A stretch of DNA of 64,000 nucleotides from contig RFHH01000164.1 in assembly GCA_003696075.1 (NCBI GenBank), positions 12,749-76,748 of the forward strand, written 5' to 3'. Numbering within the stretch: position 1 is the first letter of the stretch; each line of letters starts with the position of its first letter. The DNA comes from Acidobacteriota bacterium (lineage in GTDB: Bacteria > Acidobacteriota > Polarisedimenticolia > J045). Below, piece by piece: positions 3,832 to 55,401 of this stretch. The notes under the pieces are model-generated. The model ran no database searches. It had not been told where the DNA came from and saw only the letters and a program-made list of their open reading frames with translations. The position numbers and the translations under genes were made by a program.

Positions 3832-3847
3832 GCCGCCCCCCCGGCCG

Positions 3848-28354: not shown

Positions 28355-29343
28355 GGCGCCGCCGTCCCCGCTGCGGCCCAGCCGGGAACGAGGGCGTTCC
28401 CTCGGACGCTGTACACGGCGAGGTGGCGGCTCTCGGGAGAGGCGAGCCACTCGCCGATCGGCATCGCTCTCAGCACCGAGAGCAGAGCATCCAGCCTTGT
28501 CTCCATGCGGGAGAGATTACGGTAGTGGCGCACGCGCGTCACCGGCCCGACGGGCAACCGCGGCTGCCCCGGATCGAGTTCCCACGGGTGAAGGTAGAGG
28601 ACGGCGGGTCGCCGGTGCGCCCGGGTCATTCGCCGCAGGCCCCATCGGACGAGGACGAACGGGAGATGCCGCCAGTAGGCGCCCCCGGCGAGAGGAATCC
28701 GCAGCCTCCCCACGCGCAGGGTCGCGGGCGGCAGCTCGAGCAGGTCTCCCCCCGGCGTCAGGGCCACGAACGGCTCGGTGGGGGCCGCGGGAAGGCGGCA
28801 CCGGCGATAGACCGGAAAGATGCTGGAATCGTAGCGGAAGCCGTGCGCGGCGAGAACCTCCAGAGCCCAGAGGTTTTCCTTCCCGATCGAGAAGGACGGC
28901 GCGCGGTAGCCGGCCGGCCTCGCGCCGCAAGCCGATCCGATCGCTTCCACCGCGAGGGCGGTGTCCTCCGCGAACCGTTCCGGATCGAGGGAATCGACCC
29001 GCCGGTGGTGGTAGGAGTGGCACGCGATTTCGTGACCGGCCTCGGCGATTTCGCGCACGAGATCGGGGTAGCGGTCGGCGATCCACCCCAGGACGAACCA
29101 TGTGGCCCGCGCTTCGTGGCGCGCCAGGATTTCCAGGAGCTTGCGGACGTTGCGCGCCACCCGGGCCGGATACCACTCCCAGTCATCGCGCTGGACGATG
29201 GACCGGAACGCCTCGACCTGGAAGTAGTCCTCGAGATCGATCGAGAGAAGAGCCGGCGCGGCCGCGTTGCCGTCCAGGACTCCCGCCGGCCGGGGCCGCC
29301 CGCTGTCCCGCGACGCCTGCAGACCAGCCGGGTCGAGCTCCAC
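28351..29343 (-). CDS. Polysaccharide deacetylase, XrtA/PEP-CTERM-locus-associated subfamily (DUF3473-like)
   Basis: The motifs LLSIDLEDYFQVEAF...ATWFVLGWIADRYPDLVREIAEAGHEIACHSYHHRRV define this deacetylase subfamily. A GTG start at 29341-29343 lies 6 nt after GGAGG. Confidence 0.75.
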   Translation of the reverse strand: MELDPAGLQASRDSGRPRPAGVLDGNAAAPALLSIDLEDYFQVEAFRSIVQRDDWEWYPARVARNVRKLLEILARHEARATWFVLGWIADRYPDLVREIAEAGHEIACHSYHHRRVDSLDPERFAEDTALAVEAIGSACGARPAGYRAPSFSIGKENLWALEVLAAHGFRYDSSIFPVYRRCRLPAAPTEPFVALTPGGDLLELPPATLRVGRLRIPLAGGAYWRHLPFVLVRWGLRRMTRAHRRPAVLYLHPWELDPGQPRLPVGPVTRVRHYRNLSRMETRLDALLSVLRAMPIGEWLASPESRHLAVYSVRGNALVPGWAAAGTAAP

Positions 29344-29512: not shown

Positions 29513-30622
29513 ATGGAAGCGTTCGCCCTGGAGACCCTCGAGAGCGTCGGGTCTCTCCGCGCCGAGTGGGACGACCTGCTCGCACGCTGTCCCGGCTCGC
29601 CGCTGTTTCGGACCCCCGAGTGGGTGCTCACCTGGTACGAGGTCCTGGCGGACCGCTTCCGACCGCTGGTCCTCGCCTTCCGCGAGTCCGGGCGGCTGAT
29701 CGGGCTCCTCCCGCTGGCACGGCGCCGGGACGGCCGGAGGATCGAATTCGCGGGGGAGGCGCTCGCCTCCGGCGACCACCTCGGTCTCGTCGCGAGAGCG
29801 GAGGAGCTGGATCGACTCTGGGACGCGGCGGCGGGCCTCCTCGAGCCGGAGCTCCGGCGGGCGCGCGTCCTCAGGCTGGCGATGCTCGATCGCGGACCCG
29901 AGGTGGAGGCCGCACGTCGAGCGGCGGACCGGCGCGGCTGGACCGTCGTCGCCTCCGCCGGCATCGAGGCGCCCGTGGCGCGGCTTCCCTCCGATCCGGA
30001 AGACCTCCTCCGCCGGCTCCGAAAGAAGCGGCGGGCCGACGTGAGACGGCGCCGGCGGGATCTCGAACAGCGGGAAGGCGCCGCCTTTTCCACGATCACC
30101 GGCGCCGAGGACGTCGGCACGGGCCTGGAGATCCTGTTCGCGCTTCATGCGGCCCGCTGGCGGAGCCGTGGCAGCGAAGGGACGCTCGGCGACCCTGTCA
30201 AGCGCCGCTTCCTCGGCACCTTCTGCCGGTCGGCCGCGGAACGTGGATGGCTGCGCCTCCACGTGTGCCGCGCGCGCGGGAGACCGATCGGCGCTCTGCT
30301 CGCCTTTCACCGCGACGGCACCGCGAGCTATCTGCAATCGGGCTGGGATCCGGAGTTCCGCCGCTACGGAGTGGGAGAACTGCTCGTGCTCTTCGGCATG
30401 GAGGAGGCGGTCCGCGAGGGCCTGCGGTGGTTCGACTTCCTGCGCGGCGACGAGCCGTACAAGGCGCGCTGGTCCACCGAGACCCGCACGCTGGTCACGC
30501 TGGAAGCCGCGTGCCGCCTCCCCGGGCGGGCCGAACTCCGCCTGCGCGCGCTCGCCTCCGGCCTCCGGCGCCGCCTGCGTGCCCGACTCGCGGGTGACCG
30601 CCGCGCGGAGGGCGGCCGGTGA
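29513..30622 (+). CDS. FemAB-family / CelD-like (Acetyltransf_6) acyltransferase, PEP-CTERM-system-associated type
   Basis: The GNAT-like C-terminal region (FLGTFCRSAAERGWLRLHVCRARGRPIGALLAFHRDGTASYLQSGWDPEFRRYGVGELL) is typical of FemAB-related exopolysaccharide proteins. Confidence 0.7.
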   Translation: MEAFALETLESVGSLRAEWDDLLARCPGSPLFRTPEWVLTWYEVLADRFRPLVLAFRESGRLIGLLPLARRRDGRRIEFAGEALASGDHLGLVARAEELDRLWDAAAGLLEPELRRARVLRLAMLDRGPEVEAARRAADRRGWTVVASAGIEAPVARLPSDPEDLLRRLRKKRRADVRRRRRDLEQREGAAFSTITGAEDVGTGLEILFALHAARWRSRGSEGTLGDPVKRRFLGTFCRSAAERGWLRLHVCRARGRPIGALLAFHRDGTASYLQSGWDPEFRRYGVGELLVLFGMEEAVREGLRWFDFLRGDEPYKARWSTETRTLVTLEAACRLPGRAELRLRALASGLRRRLRARLAGDRRAEGGR

Positions 30623-31626
30623 GCTCGCTCGGACGCTCAGCCACGGCGCGTCTGCTCCGCCACGCCTTCTGGTGGCTGCGCGTCGCCCTCGGTGCCCGGA
30701 GGGCCCGTCAGGAGGGCGCGCTGCGGATCCTCACCTACCACGGGGTCGTCGCCGACGCCGCGGCGGCGGAGCCGCTGGTGCCGCCTTACTACGTCACGGA
30801 ACGGCAGCTCGCCCGGCAGTTGCGGGCCCTGCGCCGCTGGGCTCGGTTCGCCTCGGCCGAAGAGCTCCGGTTCGACGCGCGGGAGGGCCTCGTCTGGGAC
30901 CCGGACGGACTGAGCGTGCTCGTCACGTTCGACGATGGGGCGCGGAACGTCGTCGAACTCGCGCAACCGGTCCTCGACTCCTGCGGCGTCCACGCGGTGC
31001 TGTTCGTGACCACGGGTCACATCGGAACGGACCGCCCGTTCCCGGCGGACGCTCTCCGCGCTCTCCGCCTCCTCGGCGCACCGGGGAGGAGCGGCGCGGC
31101 GGCGAGCGATCCGTGCCTCCGCGAGCTGCTGGAGCGGCCGGCGGCTTGGAAGGAGTTGCCCTCCGCCCGGTACCGGGAGCGGTTGCAGCGGGCGTGGGAA
31201 GAGCTTCCGCCGGAGGAACGCTCGCGCGTGCTGCGCCTCCTCGGCCCCGCCCACTGGGACGAACTCCTCGCCTTCGCCGCCGCGGGGCACACGTTGGGGG
31301 CGCACACCGCCCACCATGCCATCCTGTCGCGGGAACCCTTGGAGACGATGCAGCGGGAGATCGAGGATTCGTTCGCCGAGCTTCGATCGCGAGGCGTGAC
31401 GGGTCGAATTCCGTTCGCCTACCCCAACGGCTCCCGCGGCGACTACACGGACGATTGCATCGCGGTTCTCCGTGCCTTGGATGCCGCCTGGGCGGCCACC
31501 ACCGTCCCCGGCCCCAACCGATCCGGTAGCCCGCGCTTCGAGCTCAGGAGGAACCCGGTGGCGATGGGCTATCCGCTGAGCCGCCTCCGCGCCGAGCTGC
31601 TCGGACTCGCGGACGGGTGGGAATGA
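30619..31626 (+). CDS. Polysaccharide deacetylase (NodB-homology domain)
   Basis: The motifs LTYHGV...VLVTFDDGARN...AHTAHH are present. The GTG start overlaps the upstream stop (GTGA). Confidence 0.75.
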   Translation: MSSLGRSATARLLRHAFWWLRVALGARRARQEGALRILTYHGVVADAAAAEPLVPPYYVTERQLARQLRALRRWARFASAEELRFDAREGLVWDPDGLSVLVTFDDGARNVVELAQPVLDSCGVHAVLFVTTGHIGTDRPFPADALRALRLLGAPGRSGAAASDPCLRELLERPAAWKELPSARYRERLQRAWEELPPEERSRVLRLLGPAHWDELLAFAAAGHTLGAHTAHHAILSREPLETMQREIEDSFAELRSRGVTGRIPFAYPNGSRGDYTDDCIAVLRALDAAWAATTVPGPNRSGSPRFELRRNPVAMGYPLSRLRAELLGLADGWE

Positions 31627-39865: not shown

Positions 39866-41029
39866 TTGTCGAAGGGGCCGGCGTCACCGAGACCGGACGT
39901 GATCCTGCTGGCCGGGACGCGCCCGGAAGTGATCAAGCTCGCTCCGGTGCTGTGGTCGCTGCGGCGGCTGTCTCGCTCCGTTCGAGCCTCCTTCGTCCTC
40001 ACCGGCCAGCATCACGACCTCGTCGCCCCCCTGCTCGGGCCGCTCGGGATCACCCCGGAAGCGGACCTCGGGGTCATGACGGAGGGCCAGCGGCCCACCG
40101 AGGTGCTGTCCGCGATCCTGGCCGGCCTGGCCCCCCTGCTCCGGAGCCGCCGCCCCTCGCTCCTCGTCGTGCAGGGAGACACCACCTCGGCCTTCGCCGG
40201 CGCGGTGGCCGGCTACTACGAGAGGATCCCGGTGGCCCATGTCGAGGCGGGGCTGCGGTCGGGGAACGACGACCACCCGTTCCCGGAGGAGATGCAGCGT
40301 TCCCTCATCACGCGGCTGGCGACGATTCACTTCGCTCCGACCGCCGGGAACGCCGAGAGGCTCGTCGCGGAGGGGGTGCCGCGCGAGGCGGTGCTGGTCA
40401 CCGGCAATCCGGTCGTCTCCGCGCTCGACGCGGTGCTCGAGCGCTTTCCACCGTCGCCGGCGGTCCAGGACCTGGTCGCGGAGGCGGAGGGGCGCAAACT
40501 CCTTCTCGTCACCACCCACCGGCGGGAGAGCTTCGGCCGCGTGATGCGGGAGCGACTGGCCTGCCTGCGGGAGTTCGTGGACCGGCACCCGGACGTCGTC
40601 CTGATCCTGCCGGTGCACCCGAACCCCGAGGTCCGGCGCGCGGTGCGGGAAGCGCTAGCCGGAGCCCCGCGGTGCCGGACCATCGATCCGGTGCCGTATC
40701 CCGATTTCCTGCACCTCGCGAGGCACGCCTGGCTCATCGTCAGCGACTCGGGAGGGATCCAGGAAGAGGCGCCGTCGTTGGGCGTGCCTCTCCTGGTGAT
40801 CCGGGAACACACGGAAAGACCGGAAGCCGTCAGCAGCGGTCACGCGAGGCTCATCGGCGGCGGCACCGAGCCGCTGCGCCGGGCGCTGGAGTCGGCCCAT
40901 GCGGAAGGCTGGCGGCCGGAGCCGGCGCCGGGGGCGAATCCCTTCGGCCGGCCGGACAGCGCCGAGGCGATCGCCCGTGCTATCGTCCGGTTCCTCGAAA
41001 CGGGAACCCTCGGGGAAGCGGGGCGATGA
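39866..41029 (+). CDS. wecB: UDP-N-acetylglucosamine 2-epimerase (non-hydrolysing)
   Basis: The motifs LAGTRPEVIKLAPV, VQGDTTS and HVEAGLRS are present. A TTG start at 39866 lies 6 nt after GGAGGG; the track ORF starts at 39827. Confidence 0.8.
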   Translation: MSKGPASPRPDVILLAGTRPEVIKLAPVLWSLRRLSRSVRASFVLTGQHHDLVAPLLGPLGITPEADLGVMTEGQRPTEVLSAILAGLAPLLRSRRPSLLVVQGDTTSAFAGAVAGYYERIPVAHVEAGLRSGNDDHPFPEEMQRSLITRLATIHFAPTAGNAERLVAEGVPREAVLVTGNPVVSALDAVLERFPPSPAVQDLVAEAEGRKLLLVTTHRRESFGRVMRERLACLREFVDRHPDVVLILPVHPNPEVRRAVREALAGAPRCRTIDPVPYPDFLHLARHAWLIVSDSGGIQEEAPSLGVPLLVIREHTERPEAVSSGHARLIGGGTEPLRRALESAHAEGWRPEPAPGANPFGRPDSAEAIARAIVRFLETGTLGEAGR

Positions 41030-42801
41030 AGGGAAGCGCGGTGGACGGTGGCGGTGGAGGCGCGGACGTCCTCCTCACGGTGGCCGTCGAGGAGTACTTC
41101 CAGGTCCAGGCCCTGCGCGCTTACATCCCGGCCAGCCGGTGGGATCGCTTCGAGTCGCGCGTCCGGCGCAACACCGAGAGAACCCTCGAACTCCTCGAAT
41201 CGGTGGGTGCCACGGCGACGTTTTTCGTCTCGGGATGGATCGCGGAGCGGCATCCGGCCGTCGTCCGCGAGGTCGCGGAGGCAGGCCACGAGGTAGCGTG
41301 CCTCGGGTACGATCACCGTCCCCTGCGGGAATTCGACGCCGCAGGCTTCCGCGCCGACGTCCGGAAGGGGAAGGCCGCCGTCGAGCAGGCGTCCGGTCGG
41401 GAGGCCATCGGCTACCGAATCCCCCACGGTTGGTTCGGCCCTGCGGACCTCTGGGCGCTCGACATCCTCGCCGAGGAGGGATTCCTCTACGACTCCAGCC
41501 TGTGCCCGGCGTTCAGGCGGTTCGCGGACGAGCCCTGGCGGCGCTTCATCCACGCCATCGAGCGGGGAGAAAGGCGCCTGATCGAGGTCCCGCCCGGAAC
41601 GGTCCGGCTCGCCGGCTTGGACTGGCCGATCGCCGGGGGCAACTACCTGCGCCAACTGCCGCGCGCCTGGCTGCGCTTCGGGATGGCCGCCTGGCGGCGT
41701 TCCACGACACAGCCCTTCGTGATGTACTTCCATGTCTGGGACCTCGACCCCGACCAGCCGCGCATCACCGCCGCGGGCTGGCTGCCCCGCCTGCGCCAGT
41801 ACCGGAACCTGCACCGCATGCGGGACTTTCTGCAACGGCACCTGGAAGGCGCCACGGCCACGAGCATCGCGGAGCACCTGCGCATGGCCGCCGGACGCCG
41901 CACCTTCGCCGAGCCCGCGGCCAGGCCGGCGGCCCGGCCCGCCGCGGCGGCGCGGGAAGAACGCCCGGCCGAGCGGGTCACGGTGGTGGTGCCCTGCTAC
42001 AACGAGGAGGCGGTCCTCCCTTACCTCGCCCAGACCCTCGCCAGCGTTCGGAAGGCCTACCGCGGCCGGTACCGGTTGTCCTTCGTCTTCGTCGACGACG
42101 CCAGCACCGATCGCACCTGGGAGGTTCTGCAGTCGCTCTTCGGCGGGAGCGACGACTGCCGGCTCCTCCGGCACGACACCAACCGCGGCGTCGCGGCCGC
42201 GGTGCTCACCGGGTTGCGCAACGCGGACACCGAACTGGTCGTGTCGATCGATTGCGACTGCAGTTACGATCCGCACGAGATCGGGCGCCTTCTCGATCGC
42301 CTGCGCCCCGGCGTGGCCCTGGTCACCGCCTCCCCGTATCACCTCCTGGGCGAAGTGCGGAACGTCCCGGGCTGGCGGCTCTTCCTGTCGCGGTCGCTGT
42401 CGCGCCTGTACCGGGCGCTGTTCCGGCAGAAACTGCACACCTACACCAGCTGTTTCAGGGCCTACAGGAGGTCGCTGGTCCTTCCGCTGGAACTCGAGCG
42501 GGGGGACTTCATGGGCATGACCGAGATGTTGGTGCGTCTCGATCTGCGGGGCGCCCGACTCGCCGAGGTGCCGGCGGTCCTCGAAGCGCGCCTGCTGGGA
42601 CACTCGAAGCTGCGCGCGCTCCCGACGATCCTGCGCCATCTGGCGCTCCTGGCCCAGTTGGTCTGGTGGAAACTGACACGCCGCGCCGGCAAGGGACCCG
42701 CTCCCGGCGGCGAGGCCGAGGAGATTTCCTATGAGCGAAGCGAGCCCGCCCCCACGGGTGCTCCCGAGCGACCAGAACGCCAGCGGAAGGTCGTTCGGTG
42801 A
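41026..42801 (+). CDS. Fusion protein: XrtA-type polysaccharide deacetylase (DUF3473-like) N-terminal domain plus GT2 glycosyltransferase C-terminal domain
   Basis: The N-terminal domain (LLTVAVEEYFQVQALRAY...ATFFVSGWIAERHPAVVREVAEAGHEVACLGYDH) is paralogous to 28351-29343. The C-terminal domain (VTVVVPCYNEE...VFVDDASTDRT...SIDCDCSYDP) is DPM1-like GT2. ATGA overlaps wecB. Confidence 0.75.
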   Translation: MKGSAVDGGGGGADVLLTVAVEEYFQVQALRAYIPASRWDRFESRVRRNTERTLELLESVGATATFFVSGWIAERHPAVVREVAEAGHEVACLGYDHRPLREFDAAGFRADVRKGKAAVEQASGREAIGYRIPHGWFGPADLWALDILAEEGFLYDSSLCPAFRRFADEPWRRFIHAIERGERRLIEVPPGTVRLAGLDWPIAGGNYLRQLPRAWLRFGMAAWRRSTTQPFVMYFHVWDLDPDQPRITAAGWLPRLRQYRNLHRMRDFLQRHLEGATATSIAEHLRMAAGRRTFAEPAARPAARPAAAAREERPAERVTVVVPCYNEEAVLPYLAQTLASVRKAYRGRYRLSFVFVDDASTDRTWEVLQSLFGGSDDCRLLRHDTNRGVAAAVLTGLRNADTELVVSIDCDCSYDPHEIGRLLDRLRPGVALVTASPYHLLGEVRNVPGWRLFLSRSLSRLYRALFRQKLHTYTSCFRAYRRSLVLPLELERGDFMGMTEMLVRLDLRGARLAEVPAVLEARLLGHSKLRALPTILRHLALLAQLVWWKLTRRAGKGPAPGGEAEEISYERSEPAPTGAPERPERQRKVVR

Positions 42802-43954
42802 GGAGGAGAGGAAAGCGCTCGCCGAGGTGCTGGCGGCCGGAACCCTGATCTCCACCAAGGGGTCGGTGGTCAAAGAGTTCGAGTCGGAATTCGCCGCCTG
42901 GCTCGGCGTCCGGCACGCCGTGGCCTGCTCCTCGGGCACCGCGGCGGTGCACACGGCGCTGGCCGCGCTCGATCTGGAACCGGGTGACGAGGTGATCACC
43001 ACCCCGATCACCGACATGGGCGCGTTGACTCCGATCCTCTACCAAGGGCTGATCCCGGTTTTCGCCGACGTCGATCCGAGCACCGGGCTTCTCGATCCCG
43101 CCAGCGTGGAGGACCGGATCGGCCCGCGCACCCGGGCGGTGATCGCCACCCATCTGTTCGGGCATCCCGGCTCGGCGGAACCCCTGGCCCGCGTCGCCGC
43201 CGATCGCGGCCTCGCCCTGATCGAGGACTGCGCCCAGGCCTACGGAGCGAGCACGCGGGGACGGAAGGTGGGCACCTTCGGGGCCCTCGCCTGCTTCAGC
43301 CTCCAGCAGGGGAAGCACATCACGTGCGGCGAAGGGGGCCTGGTCGTGACCGGCGACGACAGGCTCGCCCGCCGGTGCCGCCTGTTCGTGAACAAGGCGT
43401 GGCCCTACGGAGAGCCGGATCCCGACCACGAGTTCCTCGCGCCCAACTACCGCATGACGGAGCTTCAGGGAGCAGTGGCGCTGGCGCAGCTACGGAAGCT
43501 CGACCGCCTGCTCGACGCGCGCACCGAGACCGCCGAGGCGTTCTGCCGGAGCGCCCGCAATCTCCGGGGGGTGGCCGCACCGGTCCTCGGGCCGGAAGAC
43601 CGGCACGCCTACTGGCGCATCCCGCTCACCGTTTCCGGGGACGCGACGCGGCGCTCTCTGAAGGAGGTCGCGCGGGACCTGCAACGGGCGGGCATCGCGG
43701 CGAGCGCCGGCTACACGGGGCGGCCGGCGTTCGCCTGCCGTCTGTTTCGCGAGCAGGCGACTTTCGGCCGCAGCCGCTATCCCTTCACCCTGGCCCGACC
43801 GGAGGCGGTCGACTACCGCCCGGAGCGCTTTCCCGGCACCATGGAGTTCATCCGGCGCGTCCTCGTGATCGGTTGGAACGAGCGCATGGACCACGAGGAC
43901 ACCCGGTATGTCCTCGAGCGCCTGGAGGAGGCGCTCGGCCAGGGGGGCCGATGA
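42731..43954 (+). CDS. DegT/DnrJ/EryC1/StrS-family sugar aminotransferase (WbpE-like)
   Basis: The PLP-fold motifs CSSGTAAVHTALAAL, DMGAL and FSLQQGKHITCGEGG are present. The 5' end overlaps the previous gene by 70 nt; the true start may be the GTG at 42758. Confidence 0.75.
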   Translation: MSEASPPPRVLPSDQNASGRSFGEEERKALAEVLAAGTLISTKGSVVKEFESEFAAWLGVRHAVACSSGTAAVHTALAALDLEPGDEVITTPITDMGALTPILYQGLIPVFADVDPSTGLLDPASVEDRIGPRTRAVIATHLFGHPGSAEPLARVAADRGLALIEDCAQAYGASTRGRKVGTFGALACFSLQQGKHITCGEGGLVVTGDDRLARRCRLFVNKAWPYGEPDPDHEFLAPNYRMTELQGAVALAQLRKLDRLLDARTETAEAFCRSARNLRGVAAPVLGPEDRHAYWRIPLTVSGDATRRSLKEVARDLQRAGIAASAGYTGRPAFACRLFREQATFGRSRYPFTLARPEAVDYRPERFPGTMEFIRRVLVIGWNERMDHEDTRYVLERLEEALGQGGR

Positions 43955-44991
43955 CGGGCCGGGCGTCCGATCCACTGCGCCTCGCATTGATCGGCGCGGG
44001 GCGGATCGGTTCGGCGTACGCCGCGGCGGCTGCGGGCCTGAGGGAAGTGCGCCTCGTGGCGGTCGCCGACGTCGATCCCAGGCGAGCGGCGGCGGTGGCG
44101 GACATCTGCGGGGCGGAGCCGCGATCCGACTGGCGCGACGCGCTGGGGTCCGGGGCGGAAGCGGTGCTCATCTGCACGCCCCCCTGCTGGCATGCCGAGC
44201 AGGCGATGGCCGCAGCGGAACGAGGGCTGCATGTCCTGTGCGAAAAGCCTCTCGCGCTGAACGTTCGCGAGGCCATGGAGATGATCGACACCGCGCGCCG
44301 GCGCGGTGTTCTGCTCACCATGGCCTCGAAGTTCCGCTACGTCGACGACATTCCGAAAGCCAGGGCGCTGATCGACAGCGGTGAGATCGGTGACGTGGTG
44401 CTGCTCGAGAACTCCTTCACCTCGCGCCTCGACCTCACCGGCCGCTGGAACGCCGATCCCGCGATCAGCGGTGGTGGTGTCCTCATCGACAACGGAACCC
44501 ACTCGGTGGACATCGTCCGGTGCCTGCTGGGACCGATCGAAGCCGTCCGCGCGGTCGTGATCTCCCTCACCGCCCCCGGCGGGGTGGAGGACACGGTGCA
44601 CATGTTCGCGCGGTGCGCCGCCGGCCCGATGGCGAGCGTCCACTTGTCGTGGCGATTCGACCGGCGCTCCCGGTCGTATCTCGACATCTACGGTTCCGCA
44701 GGGGTCGTGCGCGTCGGCTGGCGCGGCTCCTGGTACCGCCGGGACAGGGACGAGAAGTGGATCCGGTTCGGCCGTGGCTACGACAAGATCCGCGCGCTGC
44801 GGAAGCAGCTCGCGGGATTCGCTCGCGCCGTGCGCGGCCGGGAACCGCTGGCCGTCTCGGACCAGGACGCCCTCGCTTCGGTCGAGGTGATCGCCGCCGC
44901 CTACCGCGCCGTCCGGTCGGGTGGCTGGGAAGCGGTCGGGAGCCAGGGAGCGACGGTCTCGGCCGCTCCTTCCCCGGAATCGGGCCGATGA
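43951..44991 (+). CDS. Gfo/Idh/MocA-family NAD(P)-dependent sugar oxidoreductase (WbpB-like)
   Basis: A Rossmann N-terminus (LRLALIGAGRIGSAYA) and the motif EKPLAL are present. ATGA overlap. Confidence 0.75.
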   Translation: MTGRASDPLRLALIGAGRIGSAYAAAAAGLREVRLVAVADVDPRRAAAVADICGAEPRSDWRDALGSGAEAVLICTPPCWHAEQAMAAAERGLHVLCEKPLALNVREAMEMIDTARRRGVLLTMASKFRYVDDIPKARALIDSGEIGDVVLLENSFTSRLDLTGRWNADPAISGGGVLIDNGTHSVDIVRCLLGPIEAVRAVVISLTAPGGVEDTVHMFARCAAGPMASVHLSWRFDRRSRSYLDIYGSAGVVRVGWRGSWYRRDRDEKWIRFGRGYDKIRALRKQLAGFARAVRGREPLAVSDQDALASVEVIAAAYRAVRSGGWEAVGSQGATVSAAPSPESGR

Positions 44992-45608
44992 GCGTCTTCA
45001 TCCATCCCACCGCGATCGTCGAGGACGGCGTGGAAATCGGCGACGGCACCTCCGTGTGGAGCCATGTTCACGTGCGGGGGCCGAGCCGGATCGGGCGGGA
45101 ATGCATCATCGGGGAAAAGAGCTACATCGCTTACGGTGTCGAGATCGGCGACCGGGTGAAGATCAACGCGTTCGTCTACATCTGCACGGCCGTCACGATC
45201 GAATCCGGAGTCATGGTCAGCGCCGGGACCATCTTCACCAACGACCGGAACCCGCGGGCCGCCACCCCGGATCTTTCCCGGTTGCTCCCTTCGGAACCGA
45301 ACGAGGAGACGCTGCCGACCCGCGTGCGCGCCGGCGCCACCATCGGCGCCGGCGCGGTCATCGGCTGCGGTCTGGAGATCGGCGAGTTCGCGATGGTCGG
45401 TATGGGCTCTGTGGTGACGAAGAGCGTGGCCCCCCACTCGCTGGTCTTTGGAAACCCCGCGCGCCCGGCCGGCCTGGTCTGCGCCTGCGGCAAGGTGCTG
45501 GTGCGCTTTCCCCGGCCGGGGGAAGCGGGCGCGCCGGAACAGCTTCGCTGCGGCGCCTGCGGCCGCCGGTACGCTTTCGACGGAAGCGGGCTGCGCGGGA
45601 TCGGATGA
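44988..45608 (+). CDS. Hexapeptide-repeat (left-handed beta-helix) N-acetyltransferase (WbpD-like) with a C-terminal 4-Cys zinc-ribbon-like tail
   Basis: Hexapeptide repeats (IHPTAIVEDGVEIGDGTSVW...) are followed by the tail CACGKVLVRF...CGACGRRY. ATGA overlap. Confidence 0.75.
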   Translation: MSVFIHPTAIVEDGVEIGDGTSVWSHVHVRGPSRIGRECIIGEKSYIAYGVEIGDRVKINAFVYICTAVTIESGVMVSAGTIFTNDRNPRAATPDLSRLLPSEPNEETLPTRVRAGATIGAGAVIGCGLEIGEFAMVGMGSVVTKSVAPHSLVFGNPARPAGLVCACGKVLVRFPRPGEAGAPEQLRCGACGRRYAFDGSGLRGIG

Positions 45609-46939
45609 GCGGAGCGGAACGGAGCCCGGCCGTGCCCGCCGGCGGCACGGCGGTCGTGGGGGGCGGCATGCTCGGCATCGGGGCCGCTCTCCTGCTCGCG
45701 GAGGCGGGGCGCCGCGTCACCCTGTTCGAGCGCGCCGACTGCCTGGGCGGCCTTGCCGCCGCCTGGTCGCTCGGACCCGTCCGGTGGGACAGGCACTACC
45801 ACGTGATCCTCGAATCGGACGAAGAGACGCTCGGACTCCTGGAGAAGCTCGACCTGGCCGGTCGGGTGGTCTGGAGCCGTCCGGGAACGGGCTGCTTCGC
45901 CGGGGGGCGCCTCTTCCCGGTCACCTCCGCCGCCGACATGCTGCGCCTTCCGGCGCTCGGCCTCGTCGACAAGTTCCGTTTGGGGCTGACCGTGCTCCGG
46001 GCCGCGCACGGCGGACGCCGTGGCCTCGACGAGATGACGGCGGAGCGCTGGCTGGTGCGTTGGTCGGGCAAGCGCGCCTACACGGCGTTCTGGAAGCCGC
46101 TTCTCGTGGCCAAGCTCGGGGCCTCGCATGGCCGAGCCTCCGCCGCGTTCATCCAGGCCACGATCCGGCGCCTGTACACCGCCCGCCGCGGCGCTTCGAA
46201 GCGCGAGAGGTTCGGTTACGTGCGCGGGGGCTACGCGGTGGTGCTCGACCGGGCCGAGCGGGCGCTTCGAGACCGCGGCTGCACGCTGCGGCTCGGCGCC
46301 GGCGTGAGCAGCATCGTCCGCGAGGGTTCGCGCGTCGCGGTGGCCGTGGGGGATCGCGTCGACCTCTTCGACGACGTGATCCTCACCCTGCCCCCTCCCA
46401 TCGCCGCCCGGCTGTGCCCGCAGCTCGACCACGACACCCGGAAGAAGCTGGAGTCGATCGAGTACATCGGGGTGATCTGTGCTTCTCTGCTGCTGGACCG
46501 CGCGCTGAGCGGTTACTACGTCACCAACGTGCTCGACGAGGGGCTGCCGTTCACCGCCGTCATCGAGATGACCGCCTGCGTGGATCCGGGCGACCTCCGA
46601 GGCCGCCACCTGATCTACCTCCCCCGCTACGCGCCATGGGACGATCCGTTCTGGGACCTGGACGACTCCGCCATCCGGGAAAGCCTGCTCGCGGGGCTCG
46701 AGCGGGTGCACCCCGGGCTGGGAGGTGCGCGCATCGAGGCCTTCCGCGTCTCGCGGCAGCGCTTCGTGTTGCCGCTCCCCGCCCCGGGCCTCGCCCGGCG
46801 CGTTCCCGGCATCGAGCCGGCGATCCCGGGGATCTGGATGCTGAGCTCCGCGCAGATCCGCGACGGAACGCCGAACGTGAACGACACCCTCCGCCTGGCG
46901 CGCCAGGGCGTGGCGGCCCTGCTCGGGGCAGTCTCGTGA
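45605..46939 (+). CDS. FAD/NAD(P)-binding oxidoreductase (amine-oxidase / PPO-like fold)
   Basis: An N-terminal dinucleotide-binding motif (AVVGGGMLGIGAALLLAEAGRRVTLFER) is present. ATGA overlap. Confidence 0.65.
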   Translation: MSGAERSPAVPAGGTAVVGGGMLGIGAALLLAEAGRRVTLFERADCLGGLAAAWSLGPVRWDRHYHVILESDEETLGLLEKLDLAGRVVWSRPGTGCFAGGRLFPVTSAADMLRLPALGLVDKFRLGLTVLRAAHGGRRGLDEMTAERWLVRWSGKRAYTAFWKPLLVAKLGASHGRASAAFIQATIRRLYTARRGASKRERFGYVRGGYAVVLDRAERALRDRGCTLRLGAGVSSIVREGSRVAVAVGDRVDLFDDVILTLPPPIAARLCPQLDHDTRKKLESIEYIGVICASLLLDRALSGYYVTNVLDEGLPFTAVIEMTACVDPGDLRGRHLIYLPRYAPWDDPFWDLDDSAIRESLLAGLERVHPGLGGARIEAFRVSRQRFVLPLPAPGLARRVPGIEPAIPGIWMLSSAQIRDGTPNVNDTLRLARQGVAALLGAVS

Positions 46940-46953: not shown

Positions 46954-47946
46954 GTGACCGCGCGGGCGAACCGGATGCCGGCGACCTTGTCGCTGGACCT
47001 CGACAACGAGTGGTCCTACCTCCGCGTCCGCGGCGATGCCCGATGGCGCTCGCATCCGTCCTACATTCCGCGGCTGATCGACCTCGTTCTGCCGATCCTC
47101 GACCGGCTGAACGTTTCGATCACGTTCTTTGTCGTGGGCCGGGACGCGGAGATCGACGCCCACCGGGCAGCGCTCGAGGAGGTGGCGCGCCGCGGACACG
47201 AGATCGGGAATCACTCGCACGAGCACGAGCCTTGGCTCCACCTCTACGCCGAGAAGGATCTCGCGGCGGAGATCGAGCGGTCCACGGCGGCGCTTCGAAA
47301 CGCCACGGGGCGCAGCCCGGTGGGCTTCCGGGGCCCCGGCTTCAGCGTCAGCCCCGCCGTGCTCCATGTCCTGTCGCGGGCCGGCTACGTCTACGACGCC
47401 TCGACGCTACCGACCTTCATCGGCCCGCTGGCGCGACTGTACTACCTGCGGACGGCGCCGGTCGCAGGGGAGGAGCGGGCCAAGCGCGCCCGGCTCTTCG
47501 GGCGATTCTCCGACGGATGGCGGCCCCTGCGGCCCTACCGGTGGCGGCTCGGGCCCCGGACGATCCTCGAGTTGCCGGTCACCACGGTGCCGCTGCTCCG
47601 CATCCCCTTCCACGTGAGCTATCTGCTTTTCCTGGCGCGGCGGTCTCACCTCGTGGCGACCCTCTACTTCCGCTTCGCGCTCCGTCTCTGCCGCATCCGA
47701 CGGGTCTCCCCCTCACTGCTGCTCCATCCCCTGGATTTCCTCGGAGGCGACGAGGTGCCCTCGCTCCGCTTTTTCCCCGCGATGGACCTGCCCGGCGACC
47801 GGAAACGGCAGTGGGTCTCGGCCTGGCTCGACGCCTACGTCCGCGACTTCGATGTGCTGCCCCTTGGCCGGTTCGCCGAAGAGCTCTCCGGGGCCGAGCT
47901 GCCGGAGTTTCCGCCCGGCTCAACCGCCTCGCCGCCGATCTCGTAG
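46954..47946 (+). CDS. Polysaccharide deacetylase (NodB-homology domain)
   Basis: The motifs LSLDLDNEW...ITFFVVGRD...GHEIGNHSHEHE are present. A GTG at 46954 follows AAGGAGGGG; the alternative GTG at 46936 overlaps the upstream stop. Confidence 0.7.
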   Translation: MTARANRMPATLSLDLDNEWSYLRVRGDARWRSHPSYIPRLIDLVLPILDRLNVSITFFVVGRDAEIDAHRAALEEVARRGHEIGNHSHEHEPWLHLYAEKDLAAEIERSTAALRNATGRSPVGFRGPGFSVSPAVLHVLSRAGYVYDASTLPTFIGPLARLYYLRTAPVAGEERAKRARLFGRFSDGWRPLRPYRWRLGPRTILELPVTTVPLLRIPFHVSYLLFLARRSHLVATLYFRFALRLCRIRRVSPSLLLHPLDFLGGDEVPSLRFFPAMDLPGDRKRQWVSAWLDAYVRDFDVLPLGRFAEELSGAELPEFPPGSTASPPIS

Positions 47947-49413
47947 ACGCACCACTCGCCGAACGCCGCGAGTTTCCGCAGCGGCAGCTCCGCGTCGATG
48001 ACGACGTGCGTGGCACCGTACCGGCGCGCCGCCTCGCGCACCGCGCCGGCGGTCAGCCGCCGGTAGCGCTCGGCCAGTTCCTCCTCTCCGGTTCCGCGAC
48101 CCACGGGCCCGAGCAGCAGATCGCAGCGCTCGCGCCATTCCCGGAACGAGGTGTAGGGGTGATAGACGCGGCTGGCCACGATGGCGCGCCGCGAGACGGA
48201 CCAGTTGCCCCGGAACCAGGGCGGCGCCACCAGAACCGCGTCCTCCGGAAGGCGGTCGCGGCACCAGCCCAGGGCCCGTTCGAGATCGGTCGGCGCCCGG
48301 AACCAGCTCGTCAGAGCCGGTCTGGCGGCGTCGGCGAGCCCGAACAGAGGACTGGGCACAGCGGCGAGCGCGGCGATCAGGAACGCTCTGAGGGCCATGC
48401 CCGCCTGCCGCCATCCCCCCTCCGCCGCCCATGCGCAGGCCCCGAGGAAGAAGAACAGCGGCGTCAGCAGGGGGAAGAGGCGGAACGGAAAGGTGGCCAG
48501 GAAGCGGTCGAAGCCCGCGACCCGGGCGACGCACCCCGCGGCAAAGACGGACGCGGCGGCCGCTTGCCACACGGTGGCGGCGCGCCAGAGGGGGCGCTCC
48601 CACAGTTGCGATCGGGCGACGAGGACGTTCACCGCGAACAGCACGCCGAGGAGGACGAGGCGCCTCACCGGCCAGGTCGCCGGGTCGAGGTGCTCGGGCA
48701 TCTTGACGAGCGCCATGTAGCGCCACTCCTCCGCCGACGTCACCCCCCCGGGCGCGAGAAGCAGCGGGAGGATCCCGACGGCAGCCGGGACGGCGAACAG
48801 CGCCGCCGCCGCTGCGGCGCGGCGGGCGGACGGGGGCCGCCGCAGCGCCGGTAGGAGGGTGATCGCCCCCCATCCTCCCACCGAGGGATGAAGGGCGGTG
48901 GCGAGGCCCGCCCACAGCCCGGCCTTCTCCACGGCGCTCCGGCTCACCGCCCGGAGCGACAAGAAAAGGGCCGCGTAAGCGAACGTCTTCGCCTCGAAGG
49001 TCTTGAGCATCCAGCTCCGGGCCACGATCGACTGGCCCGAGCCGAGCCACAGCGCCAGGGCAAGAGCGGCCAGCGGCGCGGTGAGCCCAGCCTCGCGCGC
49101 GACGACGAGGAGGACCGCGAGTCCGCCAATCCATCCGGCGAGACGCCCCATCGCGCCGAAGGTCTCGATGTCGAACGGGATGCTCAGCGGACCGGCGATG
49201 TGATTGAACAACCAGTGCTCGGGTGCCGGCTGGCGGAGCGTCCAGTCGTTCGCGAGGAAGTCCGGGTGCCCGAGGCGGTAGAGCCGGATCAGGTAGAAGT
49301 TCTCGTTACCCCACGGGACCGCGCCTCCGTGCTGGAGGCCGGTCAGGACGAGAAGGACGGCGAGCGCGGCCATCCAATGGTGCCGGCGTCCCGGCGTGCG
49401 CTTGTCGTCCATG
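47835..49413 (-). CDS. Polytopic membrane protein, possible GT-C-fold glycosyltransferase / polymerase
   Basis: The ATG at 49411-49413 follows GGAGGGAGGG. The protein has many transmembrane helices and a C-terminal soluble domain. The 3' end overlaps the convergent deacetylase by about 110 nt. Confidence 0.5.
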
Positions 49414-49444
49414 CCCTCCCTCCGCTTCGCGGCGTTCCGGCCCG

Positions 49445-50629
49445 TCAACCGCGCGCCGCACTCCGCGGCCTCCAGAACTCCCTCCCGAGAACGAGATCGC
49501 GATGCCGGCGCAGCACGTGGGCCATCCAGTCTACGTCCTCGTCGCGCAGATCCTGGTGCACGGGAAGCTCGACCACCGTCCGGCGCCACAGGTCCACCTG
49601 AGCGAAACGGCCCGGGGGGCAGGCCGGGTGATGGCGAGACCAGAACGAGATCGTCTCGATGCCGGCCTCGGCCAGGCGCGCCCGCAGCGCCGCCCGGTCG
49701 CGCGCGAGCACCGGGTAGGAGAGCGGGCAGGTCCCCTCGCCGAGCGGGGCGAGCGGACTGGGGGCCGCCTCGCCGGCCAGCTCGTGCAGCCGGAGGAAAT
49801 TTCGCCGCCGGCGGCTCACGATCTCCGCCCGGCGGGCGGCACGCGCCAGCCGCGCCACCCACGGGGAGACGCCGAGATCGAGCATCTCAGGATCGAGCTC
49901 CTCGGTGTCGACCCCGACCACCTCCGCTCTTCCGAGGCGCTTGAGCAGGCGGGCCGTGCGGGTGGCCAGGTCGGCGGCTCCCCGCCGGAGCCTCCCCCCG
50001 CCGAGCCGCGCGGCGTCGAGCAGGCGATGCAGCGTGAACGCGGCGGTGGAGAGTCGATCGGGCCTGCGGGCCGGCCCGGGAGGGGCGTCGCCGCCGCGGT
50101 TCCAGCGGAGCATCCCCCCGTGCGGGACCGGAAGCGTCTTGTAGAGGCAGAAAATCGCGAAGTCGCCGAAGGAGCCGAGCGGCCGCCCCCCCTCCTCGCC
50201 GTAAAGCGACAGCGCGCAGTCCTCGATCAGCGGGACACCCGCCTCGTCGCACAGGCGCCGGATCTCGGCGATCGGCTGCGGACGTCCCAGGTAGTGGGTG
50301 ACATACACCGCGGCGGGCCCTGCCGCGATCCGCCGGTGGAGCTCCTCGGGATCGGCGCGCAGGTCGGGACGAATGGGATAGAAGTCGAAGCGAACGCCCA
50401 GAACCCTGAGAACCTCGACCTCGATGCCGTGATGATAGGCCGGCATGAGAACCGTGCTGCCCGGACCGAGGCCCAACGCGCGCGCCCCTGCCCACAGCGC
50501 GTTGCGGGCCATGTAGTAGAAGCGCGATCGAGGATCGTCGAACGGCGGATCCGGAGCAGCCGGCTCCCTGGGGAGAACGTCGCCTGGGCGCAGCACCGGG
50601 TCGAACGTCACGTAGCGCGGCTTCGCCAT
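49445..50629 (-). CDS. DegT/DnrJ/EryC1-like PLP-dependent aminotransferase-fold protein
   Basis: The motifs MPAYHHGIEVEV and IEDCALSLYG are present. The start was chosen at MAKPRYVTF. Confidence 0.6.
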   Translation of the reverse strand: MAKPRYVTFDPVLRPGDVLPREPAAPDPPFDDPRSRFYYMARNALWAGARALGLGPGSTVLMPAYHHGIEVEVLRVLGVRFDFYPIRPDLRADPEELHRRIAAGPAAVYVTHYLGRPQPIAEIRRLCDEAGVPLIEDCALSLYGEEGGRPLGSFGDFAIFCLYKTLPVPHGGMLRWNRGGDAPPGPARRPDRLSTAAFTLHRLLDAARLGGGRLRRGAADLATRTARLLKRLGRAEVVGVDTEELDPEMLDLGVSPWVARLARAARRAEIVSRRRRNFLRLHELAGEAAPSPLAPLGEGTCPLSYPVLARDRAALRARLAEAGIETISFWSRHHPACPPGRFAQVDLWRRTVVELPVHQDLRDEDVDWMAHVLRRHRDLVLGREFWRPRSAARG

Positions 50630-51832: not shown

Positions 51833-53587
51833 GTGAGAGAAGACGAGCGCCACCGCCGGCCGACCGCGCCGCCGCCCGCCGGGGCCGGTTCCGCCTCCGC
51901 CCTCGCGGCGCGCGCGCTGCCGCCGCTGATCCTGTTGCTCGGACTGGCCCTTCACGGCATCGGGGTGCTCCAGCCGCTCGACCAGCCGCACTGGCGAACG
52001 ATCGACGACGCGGCGATCGCCCGGAACTTCGCCCGGGAGGGGCTCGACCCGGCGTTCCCGCGGGTCGACTGGCGGGGAGAGGGACCGGGCTTCGTCGAGA
52101 TGGAGTTCCCGTTCCTTCCGTGGGCGCTGGGCGTCGCGCACCGTGTCGCGGGCGTGCCGCTCCGGTGGGGACGCCTGCTGGCCTTTCTCGCCACGTGCGC
52201 GGCTGCCCTGATCTTCGACGCGCTGGCACGGCGGCGCCTGCCGCCGGCGGGCCGCGCGGTGGCGTTGGCCGCCTTCGTCCTCAATCCCACCCTCGCCGGC
52301 GTGTCGAACGAGATCCAGCCGGACGCGCTGATGCTCGCGCTGGCGCTCGGCGCCATCCTGAGCTTCGAGGCGTGGCTGTCGGCCCGGAGCGGCCGGCTGT
52401 GGCCGGCGTCGCTCCTCGCCGCTCTGGCCGTGCTGGCGAAGGCGCCGGCCGCTCTGATCCTGCCGGTCGTCGCCGTCCGCTCGCTCCGCCACCAGGGAGG
52501 GTGGCGCAAAGGCTTGTCGGGCGCCGCTCGCGTGAGCCTGGCCGCCGCGCTTCCCGCGGCCGTCTGGTACGGCCACGCCCACGGACTCTGGCTCCGTTAT
52601 GGGAACTCGCTCGGCTTGAGCGACGAGTCTCACTGGATCGGTGTCGACATGCTCGGGCATCCCGGCTTCTTGGCCGACATCGCGAAGCTCGAGTTCGCCG
52701 CGGTGATCCTGCCCGGCGGCGCGCTCCTCCTCCTGCTGGCGATCGCCGCCCGGTGGCGGGGCCGCGGATGCGACCTGGAGGTGGCCTGGCTCGGCGCGGC
52801 CTACCTGTTCTACCTCGCAGCAGGACGGACCACCGGGGACGCCTGGGCAGCCTACTACCACCTCGCCAGCCTCCCTCCGACAGCGCTCATGGTCGGTGCC
52901 GCCGCCCAGTTCCTCCTGGAGGCGGGGCGCGGGCGCGCTCTCCTTTTCGCCGCCCCGGCCGCCGCGATCGGAGGGGCGGCGTGGGGCCTCGCGCGCTCCG
53001 CCGACTCCGGCCTTTCTCCGCCGGCGCTCGTCTCGGCGGCCGCCGCCGGGGCCGCGGCGGGTGCGCTCGCCGCGGCGTTCCTCCTGCTCCCGGGGCGCGC
53101 GTCCGGTTCGCGCCGCACGGTGCTCGCGGCCCTCGGAGCCCTGGCTGCGACGGTCCTGGTTCTCGACGGGGCGAGGCGGAGCTGGTGGCACGACCGCCCG
53201 CGGCCTCCCCACGCTCTCCACGAGTGCGCACGATCCTTCGCGCCGCTCCTCGATGGCGCCCGCCGGATCGTCGCCAGCGGCGGCGACTGCCGCGACCCCA
53301 CGGGACGCCCGGTCGCCTACCACAAGCCCTACATGTTCTTCTGGACCGGGACCACGGGCTTTTCCGTCTGCCGCCAGGAGCTGGGATCGGTCGACGTGTC
53401 GAGGTTCCTCGCGGCGGGAGCCCGCTGGATGATCGTCGAGGTGCAGGACCTCGACGCCGCTCCTGGCGGGTGGCGGCTCGTCGAGCGTCACCGCGTGCGC
53501 GCGCGGTGCCCGGAGGCCTTCCTGATCGACCTGAGCGAGGAGCCGGTCACGCCGGCGAACGGAGCGAGTGGCGGGCGAGGAGGGTGA
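51833..53587 (+). CDS. GT-C-fold membrane glycosyltransferase (ArnT/PMT-like, GT39/GT83-like)
   Basis: The polytopic N-terminal half has the loop-1 motif FAREGLDPAFPRVDW typical of ArnT/PMT families. The start is GTG. Confidence 0.6.
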   Translation: MREDERHRRPTAPPPAGAGSASALAARALPPLILLLGLALHGIGVLQPLDQPHWRTIDDAAIARNFAREGLDPAFPRVDWRGEGPGFVEMEFPFLPWALGVAHRVAGVPLRWGRLLAFLATCAAALIFDALARRRLPPAGRAVALAAFVLNPTLAGVSNEIQPDALMLALALGAILSFEAWLSARSGRLWPASLLAALAVLAKAPAALILPVVAVRSLRHQGGWRKGLSGAARVSLAAALPAAVWYGHAHGLWLRYGNSLGLSDESHWIGVDMLGHPGFLADIAKLEFAAVILPGGALLLLLAIAARWRGRGCDLEVAWLGAAYLFYLAAGRTTGDAWAAYYHLASLPPTALMVGAAAQFLLEAGRGRALLFAAPAAAIGGAAWGLARSADSGLSPPALVSAAAAGAAAGALAAAFLLLPGRASGSRRTVLAALGALAATVLVLDGARRSWWHDRPRPPHALHECARSFAPLLDGARRIVASGGDCRDPTGRPVAYHKPYMFFWTGTTGFSVCRQELGSVDVSRFLAAGARWMIVEVQDLDAAPGGWRLVERHRVRARCPEAFLIDLSEEPVTPANGASGGRGG

Positions 53588-55021: not shown

Positions 55022-55216
55022 TCACAAGGTGATCGTGGGGCAATCGATGAAGGTGTGCGGGCACCAATTGGCCTGGGTGAAGCAGTAGATCTGCACCGTC
55101 CTTTTCTGCGCACCTCCGACGCGGGAGAGGTCCTCGCGCGTCAGGCGGCGGACGGTCTCGCGGTCGAGCGTGAGCCTCGGCTCGTCCCGCACGTCGTCGT
55201 TGCGTTCATGGTTCAT
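55022..55216 (-). CDS. lanA: Class I lanthipeptide precursor peptide (64 aa)
   Basis: The ATG at 55214-55216 is preceded by GGAGGA. The translation is MNHERNDDVRDEPRLTLDRETVRRLTREDLSRVGG|AQKRTVQIYCFTQANWCPHTFIDCPTITL. The leader has an FxLD-like box (LTLD) and a double-Gly cleavage site. The core has 3 Cys and 5 Thr. The gene sits next to the lanT/lanB/lanC genes. Confidence 0.8.
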   Translation of the reverse strand: MNHERNDDVRDEPRLTLDRETVRRLTREDLSRVGGAQKRTVQIYCFTQANWCPHTFIDCPTITL

Positions 55217-55401
55217 GGTCGGGTCCTCCAGGGCTCCCCGGAGCGTTCGCCCCGGGGGCCTCCACCCGGTTAGCACCGCGGCCGGGCGCATTTCACGCGA
55301 GGTTCTCCCGGCGAGACGGGCTTCCGGCGCCGCGGTCGCGCCCGGGTTTTGTCGTGGCACCGGGTTCATCGACTCGCCGGCCCTCGGATCCGCCCCTCGC
55401 C

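Follow-up and report, generated by a model that had tools for sequence, protein, structure and literature searches.

A widespread bacterial fusion of a DUF3473-type deacetylase-like domain and a DPM1-like glycosyltransferase lacks canonical deacetylase residues

The subject of this work is a gene in a stretch of 64,000 nucleotides (nt) from an Acidobacteriota bacterium (GenBank assembly GCA_003696075.1, contig RFHH01000164.1, positions 12,749 to 76,748 of the forward strand), hereafter the window, to which all coordinates refer. A preliminary description, made from the DNA letters, had recognised in this gene a natural fusion of a DUF3473-type polysaccharide deacetylase and a DPM1-like family 2 glycosyltransferase (GT2), had called the architecture unusual and had proposed that it couples sugar transfer with de-N-acetylation at the stage of a lipid-linked precursor. 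The gene lies in a Wzx/Wzy-type exopolysaccharide (EPS) locus that spans ~22.8 to 54.7 kb of the window and has the following parts, with the evidence in brackets.

41026..42801, plus strand: fused gene, 591 amino acids (aa), with a CE4/DUF3473-like domain, a linker, a GT2 domain and a disordered tail (open reading frame translation, Pfam)
41068..41880, plus strand: N-terminal NodB/CE4 plus DUF3473 domain with remodelled active site, residues ~15-285 (Pfam, alignments, AlphaFold2 model)
41881..41970, plus strand: Ala/Pro/Arg-rich interdomain linker, residues ~286-315 (predicted local distance difference test, pLDDT; family alignment)
41971..42678, plus strand: GT2 (GT-A) domain, residues ~316-551 (Pfam, PDB matches)

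The open reading frame (ORF) of about 591 aa that had been described as joining both domains is present and uninterrupted, with zero internal stops, and contains all strings quoted from it earlier (EEYFQV, FFVSGWIAERHP, GHEVACLGYDH, VVVPCYNEE, DDASTDRT and DCDCS). Its ATG overlaps the stop codon of an upstream WecB gene (ATGA, 41026-41029). Pfam identifies Polysacc_deac_1 (PF01522) at residues 45-136 (1.7e-16; 60.7 bits versus a gathering threshold of 23.1), DUF3473 (PF11959) at residues 157-281 (1.2e-27; 96.9 bits versus 29.6) and Glycos_transf_2 at residues 319-485 (2.1e-31). The AlphaFold2 (AF2) model has a mean pLDDT of 82.5, with values mostly above 85 in the N-terminal domain and below 50 at residues 290-311, where the linker is predicted to be disordered. 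Across the fused family this linker shows 17% pairwise identity and a length of 28-91 residues, in frame every time. A codon-usage score, trained on confident genes of the window, is positive along the entire ORF in the frame of the fusion, with no drop below zero at the junction, while both other forward frames score negative. The identical protein is present in GenBank (P0001, from an Acidobacteria metagenome-assembled genome, MAG), where it is annotated only as 'glycosyltransferase'; a look-up of its exact sequence in a contig index gave no match.

The fusion could still be an artefact, either because a frameshift joined two genes or because the GT2 part is translated from an internal start. 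The sole in-frame ATG near the junction, that of M287 (nt 41884), is preceded by a weak GGAG at a distance of 13 nt; ahead of the GTG codons where the GT2 domain begins, motif inspection found no Shine-Dalgarno (SD)-like motif. A check on ribosome-binding sites has little discriminating weight here, since genuine gene starts of this operon also lack clear SD motifs. A long-read contig (L084) carries a call of 323 aa that comprises the N-terminal domain only, followed by uncalled sequence. This call (P0243; L084, 2998..4816) was considered as a natural split gene and rejected, given ~850 bp of mostly uncalled sequence before DegT; it is probably a frameshifted copy of the fusion or an assembly indel. 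Against an artefact stand the absence of stops, the unbroken coding score and the fact that the single-ORF architecture has been assembled independently in hundreds of genomes of several phyla, among them the complete genome of Defluviicoccus vanus. We therefore regard an artefact as very improbable and the fusion as natural, as had been claimed.

In a database homologue search the same three-domain architecture, in a single ORF, was found in 120 of the 120 best cluster representatives, at 48-56% identity. A species scan was made by sequence-pattern search over one genome per GTDB species, and its count is a lower bound: fused loci were confirmed in at least 599 species-representative genomes. 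They belong mainly to Gemmatimonadota, Planctomycetota, Acidobacteriota and Myxococcota, with some in Proteobacteria. One carrier, Defluviicoccus vanus Ben 114, is a named cultured strain with a complete genome rather than a MAG. The search for the same fusion elsewhere, which the preliminary description had suggested, thus shows that the architecture is common in these phyla and not unusual; it is already present in public databases and as such not new.

Other variants of the fusion also exist. The public protein P0058 (986 aa) is a triple fusion of CE4-like plus DUF3473, GT2 and DegT aminotransferase domains, and mirrors the overlap of the 3' tail of the window's fusion with the start of DegT. 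The metagenomic proteins P0274 and P0365 have the same domain order as the window fusion (Polysacc_deac_1, DUF3473, Glycos_transf_2), but are catalytically intact, i.e. they keep the D/E and H/H residues (TIDVEEY...GHEVACHGFKH). Their GT2 domains, which are only 25-27% identical to that of the window, have a canonical DADLQNDP motif and two C-terminal transmembrane (TM) helices and are of the GtrB type, whereas the window GT2 has neither feature. By sequence they probably represent an independent fusion or an ancient split relative to the window clade. Intact DUF3473 domains are elsewhere also fused to GT4 and to Bac_transf phosphoglycosyl transferase (set of P0274, P0365, P0315, P0339 and P0278), hence the DUF3473 deacetylase family has repeatedly been wired to enzymes of lipid-linked glycan assembly. 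The window clade is the far more populous fusion and combines a TM-less GT2 of the D[CA]DC[ST]YDP type with a degenerate CE4 domain.

A relative of the N-terminal half is encoded separately in the window.

28351..29343, minus strand: stand-alone paralogue of 330 aa, TIGR03006 'XrtA system polysaccharide deacetylase', with intact D36/E38 and H109/H113

The existence of this paralogue, which had been noticed before, is confirmed, and it shares 41% identity with the N-terminal half of the fusion. It scores 315.9 bits, above the TIGR03006 cut-off of 276.2 bits, and the fused protein scores 259.1 bits, below it. Members of TIGR03006 share the combination of Polysacc_deac_1 and DUF3473 with the fusion but lack its C-terminal GT2. 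For a residue-level comparison, 120 fused and 120 stand-alone domains were aligned jointly. In paralogue numbering, the fusion is without D36, H109 and S152, which are found in 120/120 TIGR03006-type stand-alone members, and has Ile at A148, invariant in the stand-alone family. It also departs from the near-invariant H180 (119/120), Y182 (118/120) and G183 (119/120); these are weaker markers, because the window's own paralogue departs there as well (R, C and R, respectively). The N-terminal domain descends, as judged by sequence, from an XrtA-type deacetylase.

The losses concern the catalytic centre. In HpPgdA, the zinc ligands are Asp14, His86 and His90, and Asp12 and His247 hold the nucleophilic water (PMC3084791). 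The position of the catalytic-base Asp is D in every stand-alone domain and A, V, G, H or I in every close fused homologue, never Asp; the window protein has A20 (41083-41085). The first zinc-binding His is likewise invariant in the stand-alone domains, whereas 102 of the 120 fused domains have Lys, the residues tallied at this position 93 (Lys, Arg, Ser, Gly and Leu, 114/120) include no His, and the window protein has L93 (41302-41304). The stand-alone motifs S-[IL]-D-L-E-D-Y and G-H-E-x-A-[CS]-H-x-Y-x-H accordingly read T-V-[AVG]-L-E-D-Y and G-H-E-x-A-S-K-G-Y-x-H in the fused family. Glu22, the acidic metal-binding residue of motif 1, is invariant in fused and stand-alone domains, and E22, H88, H97 (second His of motif 2), R131 (Arg of motif 3) and H236 (His of motif 5) are kept in the window protein, which has E23 where the fused family has D. 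With the motif definitions and roles of PMC10967932, the retained His of 'GHE' is part of a structural motif and not a ligand.

The assignment of these positions was made in three ways. In HMMER alignments, position 93 falls on the first His of H-x3-H (motif 2) of ArCE4A and 7y51; the best PDB relative of the N-terminal domain is 3rxz. The HMMER alignments to PDB chains stop short of motif 1, at a 45-residue insertion after strand beta-1, so motif 1 was anchored by profile-profile alignment to CE4b, a canonical deacetylase-family protein encoded further downstream, and by the DxD pattern of HpPgdA. In the hhalign comparison D36/E38/H109/H113 of the stand-alone protein correspond to D8/D10/H80/H84 of CE4b, and Glu22 of the fusion aligns with D10.

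In the close family the mean pairwise identity is 60% for the N-terminal domain versus 66% for GT2, and the former has conserved residues specific to the subfamily (K93, W136, D141, Q210 and W223), which indicates that it is under purifying selection and not decaying. Since the water-activating Asp and one zinc ligand are lost and the domain is nevertheless under such selection, it is most likely non-catalytic, and a pseudo-deacetylase kept for a non-catalytic role is the most economical reading. The earlier idea that the fusion couples sugar transfer with de-N-acetylation by its own two halves is not borne out, as both missing residues are invariant in the stand-alone relatives.

Several points weigh against a non-catalytic domain. 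Motif 1 was equated by profile alignment and by its location where strand beta-1 ends, not by superposition of structures. E22, D23 (E in the window), H88, H97, R131, H236, E239 and D241 are near-invariant in the close family, and Lys93 is as conserved as described above; a non-canonical and possibly metal-independent hydrolase, by analogy with PuuE allantoinase, is therefore possible. In its full form this alternative makes the protein a bifunctional enzyme of the ArnC plus ArnD kind, in which the fused domain, with a non-canonical catalytic set, would actively de-N-acetylate the sugar that has just been transferred. The intact fold of the domain would fit, PuuE demonstrates that a CE4 fold without the Asp-His-His triad can still hydrolyse, and the fusions of intact DUF3473 domains to GtrB-type GT2, GT4 and Bac_transf show that the coupling principle exists. 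It is countered by the complete loss of the catalytic base in the close homologues, by the absence of the first zinc-binding His among the residues tallied at its position, by the Leu of the window protein where the family has Lys, by an intact CE4 that is co-conserved in the operon, and by a wider survey. For the latter, 1.84 billion representatives were subjected to a full HMMER scan and 50%-identity representatives were compared (30 fused non-canonical and 90 unfused). D20 and H93 occur together in none of the 30 fused representatives; at position 93 only six have K, and the rest have a wide range of residues (R/Q/S/G/N and others); H97 is kept in 16 and H236 in 18, i.e. each is lost in roughly 40-45%. 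Among the unfused representatives D20 is present in 78, H93 in 76, and H97 and H236 in 85 each. A conserved alternative active site would hardly show such scatter, and we consider a bifunctional enzyme unlikely.

Loss of catalytic residues in this fold has precedents: the Bacillus pseudoenzyme 4M1B and the metal-independent PuuE allantoinase have also retained the NodB fold while losing the MT1 Asp and/or the MT2 His (PMC10967932). Both are stand-alone proteins, whereas the domain in the window is fused to a glycosyltransferase and is accompanied by an intact CE4 paralogue. Some sources annotate fused homologues as 'XrtA system polysaccharide deacetylase'. Neighbouring genes match the XrtA-associated glycosyltransferase families TIGR03087 and TIGR03088 as well as PEP_O_lig_1, all below cut-off, and the window genes scanned, among them part of the small ORFs, include no exosortase gene. 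For the fused clade the XrtA label is probably wrong, given the loss of the catalytic Asp and of a zinc ligand.

The description of the GT2 half as DPM1-like is fair. Using phmmer against the PDB, the best hits were Pyrococcus furiosus DPMS (PfDPMS; 5mlz, 2.1e-21), ArnC (8.4e-13) and GtrB (2.2e-8); Foldseek with the AF2 model also placed 5mlz first (4.4e-17), followed by ArnC and GtrB. Sequence and fold model thus place it in the class of polyprenyl-phosphate glycosyltransferases. Residues were mapped by the phmmer alignment to PfDPMS, with roles taken from PMC5526996 and invariance determined over 30 family members.

PfDPMS E12 (contacts the A-loop): E327, invariant
PfDPMS D89/D91 (DXD motif): D409/D411, invariant, with D409-C-D411 at 42250-42258
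PfDPMS R131/S135 (acceptor-phosphate pair on interface helix 1, IFH1): R451/S455, invariant
PfDPMS R202/K208 (A-loop closing over the donor): R522/K528, invariant
PfDPMS R117 (acceptor phosphate): invariant Pro437, the Arg not being conserved
PfDPMS K178 (contacts the product phosphoester oxygen): Met496, not conserved

The fusion GT2 hence shares the GT-A fold, the DXD motif, the Arg/Lys of the A-loop and, on interface helix 1, the Arg/Ser pair that binds phosphate with PfDPMS 5MLZ, human DPM1 and GtrB. It differs from the DPMS class by a DCDC[ST]YDP motif with four family-invariant cysteines and by the N-terminal NodB-like domain of 300 aa. Also, GtrB, ArnC and PfDPMS are anchored by C-terminal TM segments, whereas no TM helix was detected in the fused protein (maximum Kyte-Doolittle hydropathy over 19 residues, 1.15), the GT2 domain of which ends, in the AF2 model, in a sole amphipathic helix (residues 531-551). 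Human DPM1 has no TM domain either. The cysteines mentioned are C324, C410, C412 and C476, two of which are interleaved with the DXD motif (D-C-D-C); they could serve core packing or form a metal or redox site.

A polyprenyl phosphate is the best inference for the acceptor of GT2. The lack of a TM domain and the two substitutions in the list, at R117 and K178, count against it: without a membrane anchor, the acceptor is deduced from similarity. The same observations would fit another acceptor, such as a growing undecaprenyl-diphosphate-linked oligosaccharide, a soluble phospho-metabolite as in GpgS/MpgS or the exopolysaccharide itself, in which case the N-terminal domain would bind that glycan; Foldseek also matches the fold to GpgS and MpgS (E ~1e-10), and the EPS cluster contains several other glycosyltransferases. 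However, every top match by sequence or fold is a polyprenyl-phosphate glycosyltransferase, with E-values 4-7 orders of magnitude better than that of GpgS. There is no variation at the R/K of the A-loop or at the R/S phosphate site of IFH1, and both the window and several related loci have, in the vicinity, PMT_2/GT-C genes, whose products consume polyprenyl-phosphate sugars. A different acceptor thus appears quite unlikely to us.

The fusion is part of an operon in the order WecB, fusion, DegT, Gfo/Idh/MocA, hexapeptide acetyltransferase, FAD oxidoreductase, CE4b (FAD, flavin adenine dinucleotide). These genes, together with a membrane glycosyltransferase further downstream, are as follows (UDP-GlcNAc, uridine-diphosphate N-acetylglucosamine).

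39899..41029 (alternative start TTG 39827), plus strand: WecB-type UDP-GlcNAc 2-epimerase (TIGR00236, 338.7 bits)
42758..43954 (alternative start ATG 42731), plus strand: DegT/DnrJ/EryC1 sugar aminotransferase, overlapping the 3' tail of the fusion
43987..44991, plus strand: Gfo/Idh/MocA oxidoreductase, resembling UDP-GlcNAc 3-dehydrogenase (profile match, synteny)
44988..45608, plus strand: left-handed beta-helix (LbH, hexapeptide) sugar N-acetyltransferase (profile match, synteny)
45605..46939, plus strand: FAD-dependent amine-oxidase-like oxidoreductase (PRK07233, 392 bits)
46975..47946, plus strand: CE4b, second polysaccharide-deacetylase-family gene (tblastn, 56% identity to the CE4 of related locus L001)
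51833..53587, plus strand: PMT_2 (ArnT-like GT-C) membrane glycosyltransferase (weak Pfam match, 26.9 bits versus a cut-off of 26.1)

Eighty related loci were compared. WecB, translationally coupled to the fusion in the window, adjoins it in 31 of them, and DegT is directly downstream in 30. The most constant neighbour is the FAD oxidoreductase, often translationally coupled and in many loci directly after the fusion; a PDB search returned no close solved structure for it, only matches to the dinucleotide-binding motif. CE4b is co-conserved with the fusion in 51 loci. It has intact motifs (D8-x-D10, H80-x3-H84, R119-G-P121 and H251), and DxD, HxxxH, RxP and the motif-5 His are kept in at least 95% of the 51 sequences. 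In the window the last ~110 nt of CE4b are shared with the convergent gene 47835..49448, because of which the codon-usage gene caller had missed it; it was recovered by tblastn. Two versions of the module recur, [WecB] fusion DegT Gfo LbH FAD CE4b and fusion FAD CE4b AsnS-like UDP-sugar dehydrogenase. When only loci with at least 9 kb on both flanks are considered (n=28), the FAD gene is found in 22, CE4b in 21 and both in 20. A fixed partnership is thereby weakened, as within 10 kb the FAD gene is missing in six and CE4b in seven of these fully flanked loci. Since all its catalytic motifs are intact and it is conserved in the same operon, CE4b rather than the fused domain is likely the true deacetylase of the module. 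The fusion itself, the classes of its domains, the residue losses, their conservation and this synteny are direct observations.

PMT_2 genes occur near the fusion in 6 of the 80 loci and in L001. In the window, the PMT_2 gene and a gene for a multi-pass membrane protein with DUF6798 (47835..49448, minus strand) flank a second DegT-like aminotransferase and a GNAT gene; from their sequences, both flanking products are candidates for the periplasmic end of the pathway. A further Polysacc_deac_1 protein of 335 aa (30619..31626, plus strand), with a long insertion and weak PgaB/IcaB/HfsH similarity, is encoded after a GNAT (Acetyltransf_6) gene and brings the number of CE4-type domains in the window to four.

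Among the closest known counterparts is the Arn pathway of polymyxin resistance, in which ArnC is the transferase that forms undecaprenyl-phosphate-L-Ara4FN and ArnD the deformylase (PMC4402001). In that pathway an N-acylated amino sugar is attached to undecaprenyl phosphate by a GT2 of the same structural class; after deacylation of the sugar on its lipid by an enzyme of the NodB fold, a GT-C transferase passes it on (PMC4402001). ArnC ranks high among both the sequence and the fold matches of the fusion GT2, the nearest structural relatives of ArnD (3RXZ, 3QBU, 1Z7A and 3S6O) are the best PDB matches of the DUF3473-type domain, and the window locus also has an aminotransferase and a PMT_2 GT-C. 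The differences are considerable. In the fusion, the NodB-like domain is covalently attached N-terminal to GT2 and is without the catalytic Asp and one metal-binding His, whereas an intact CE4 is encoded separately and the FAD oxidoreductase is an added conserved partner. Compared with ArnC, the fusion GT2 has no TM helices and has D-C-D-C in place of D-A-D-L-Q. The setting is moreover an EPS locus and not lipid A. The Francisella FlmF2/NaxD/FlmK system, in which NaxD is a deacetylase, is analogous to ArnC plus ArnD as well, and FlmF2 is described as a glycosyltransferase potentially similar to ArnC.

Taken together, these data suggest the following model, for which the acceptor, the donor, the role of the N-terminal domain and the order of the steps are inferred. 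The fused enzyme would be a cytoplasmic or peripheral-membrane protein of two domains. WecB, Gfo/Idh/MocA, DegT and the acetyltransferase would convert UDP-GlcNAc to a modified UDP-N-acetyl-amino sugar, plausibly a 2,3-diacetamido-2,3-dideoxy-hexose; the set is presumably similar to the enzymes of the WbpB/E/D/I route, which leads to 2,3-diacetamido sugars. The GT2 domain, to judge by its class membership, would load undecaprenyl phosphate with the N-acetylated amino sugar on the inner side of the membrane. The N-terminal domain, without canonical CE4 chemistry, may bind the acetamido sugar as substrate or product and/or oligomerise and dock the TM-less transferase at the membrane. GtrB and ArnC are tetramers. 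Relatives of the HpPgdA type are tetrameric too (PMC3084791). By synteny, CE4b would deacetylate the lipid-linked sugar and the FAD oxidoreductase would modify it in a flavin-dependent step, after which a GT-C enzyme, possibly the PMT_2 protein at 51833..53587, would use the lipid-linked product on the outer face.

We consider it reasonably probable that this model holds as a whole, i.e. that a TM-less GT2 loads the sugar on lipid, the pseudo-deacetylase domain is non-catalytic and CE4b and the FAD enzyme modify the product. Of the earlier proposal, modification at the lipid-linked stage remains plausible, because the GT2 half is DPM1/DPMS-like and ArnC/ArnD provide a precedent (PMC4402001); deacetylation by the fused domain itself is not supported. 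More tentatively, we raise the possibility that a pseudo-deacetylase of XrtA-type ancestry has become indispensable, as a non-catalytic partner, to a polyprenyl-phosphate amino-sugar transferase without TM helices, tethering it to the membrane or oligomerising it there and presenting the lipid-linked N-acetyl sugar to a dedicated flavoenzyme and an intact CE4. The fusion would then form the core of a widespread pathway (at least 599 species in at least five phyla) that makes a new oxidised, deacetylated lipid-linked donor for GT-C enzymes.

Two further clusters lie in the window. A class I lanthipeptide cluster occupies 55022..62158 on the minus strand.

60893-62158, minus strand: LanC-like
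57687-60902, minus strand: LanB dehydratase
55402-57690, minus strand: ABC transporter with C39 peptidase domain

A likely lanthipeptide precursor of 64 aa with a Cys/Thr-rich core (MNHERNDD...GGAQKRTVQIYCFTQANWCPHTFIDCPTITL) ends at 55022. A molybdenum hydroxylase cluster at 1639..7602 (minus strand), unrelated to the fusion, resembles 4-hydroxybenzoyl-CoA reductase or xanthine dehydrogenase and comprises a fused gamma/alpha subunit (951 aa), a FAD subunit, a XdhC-like maturation factor and a MocA-like cytidylyltransferase.

In the literature searched, no mention of DUF3473 was found, and databases label proteins such as the fusion 'glycosyltransferase', 'DUF3473 domain-containing protein' or 'XrtA system polysaccharide deacetylase'. 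Three features appear to be undescribed: that catalytic residues are lost systematically, that the XrtA annotation is likely mistaken, and that fusion, FAD oxidoreductase and CE4b form a conserved core. The likely pseudoenzyme status of the fused domain shifts the deacetylation step to the neighbouring CE4. The three-gene core is combined with interchangeable modules for UDP-sugar supply and is found in phyla that are abundant in soil and water, i.e. Gemmatimonadota, Planctomycetota and Acidobacteriota. Because Defluviicoccus vanus Ben 114 is a named strain with a complete genome, experiments are feasible. The system therewith offers a testable entry to a route of lipid-linked amino-sugar modification, and a natural pair of enzyme and likely pseudoenzyme within the CE4 family.

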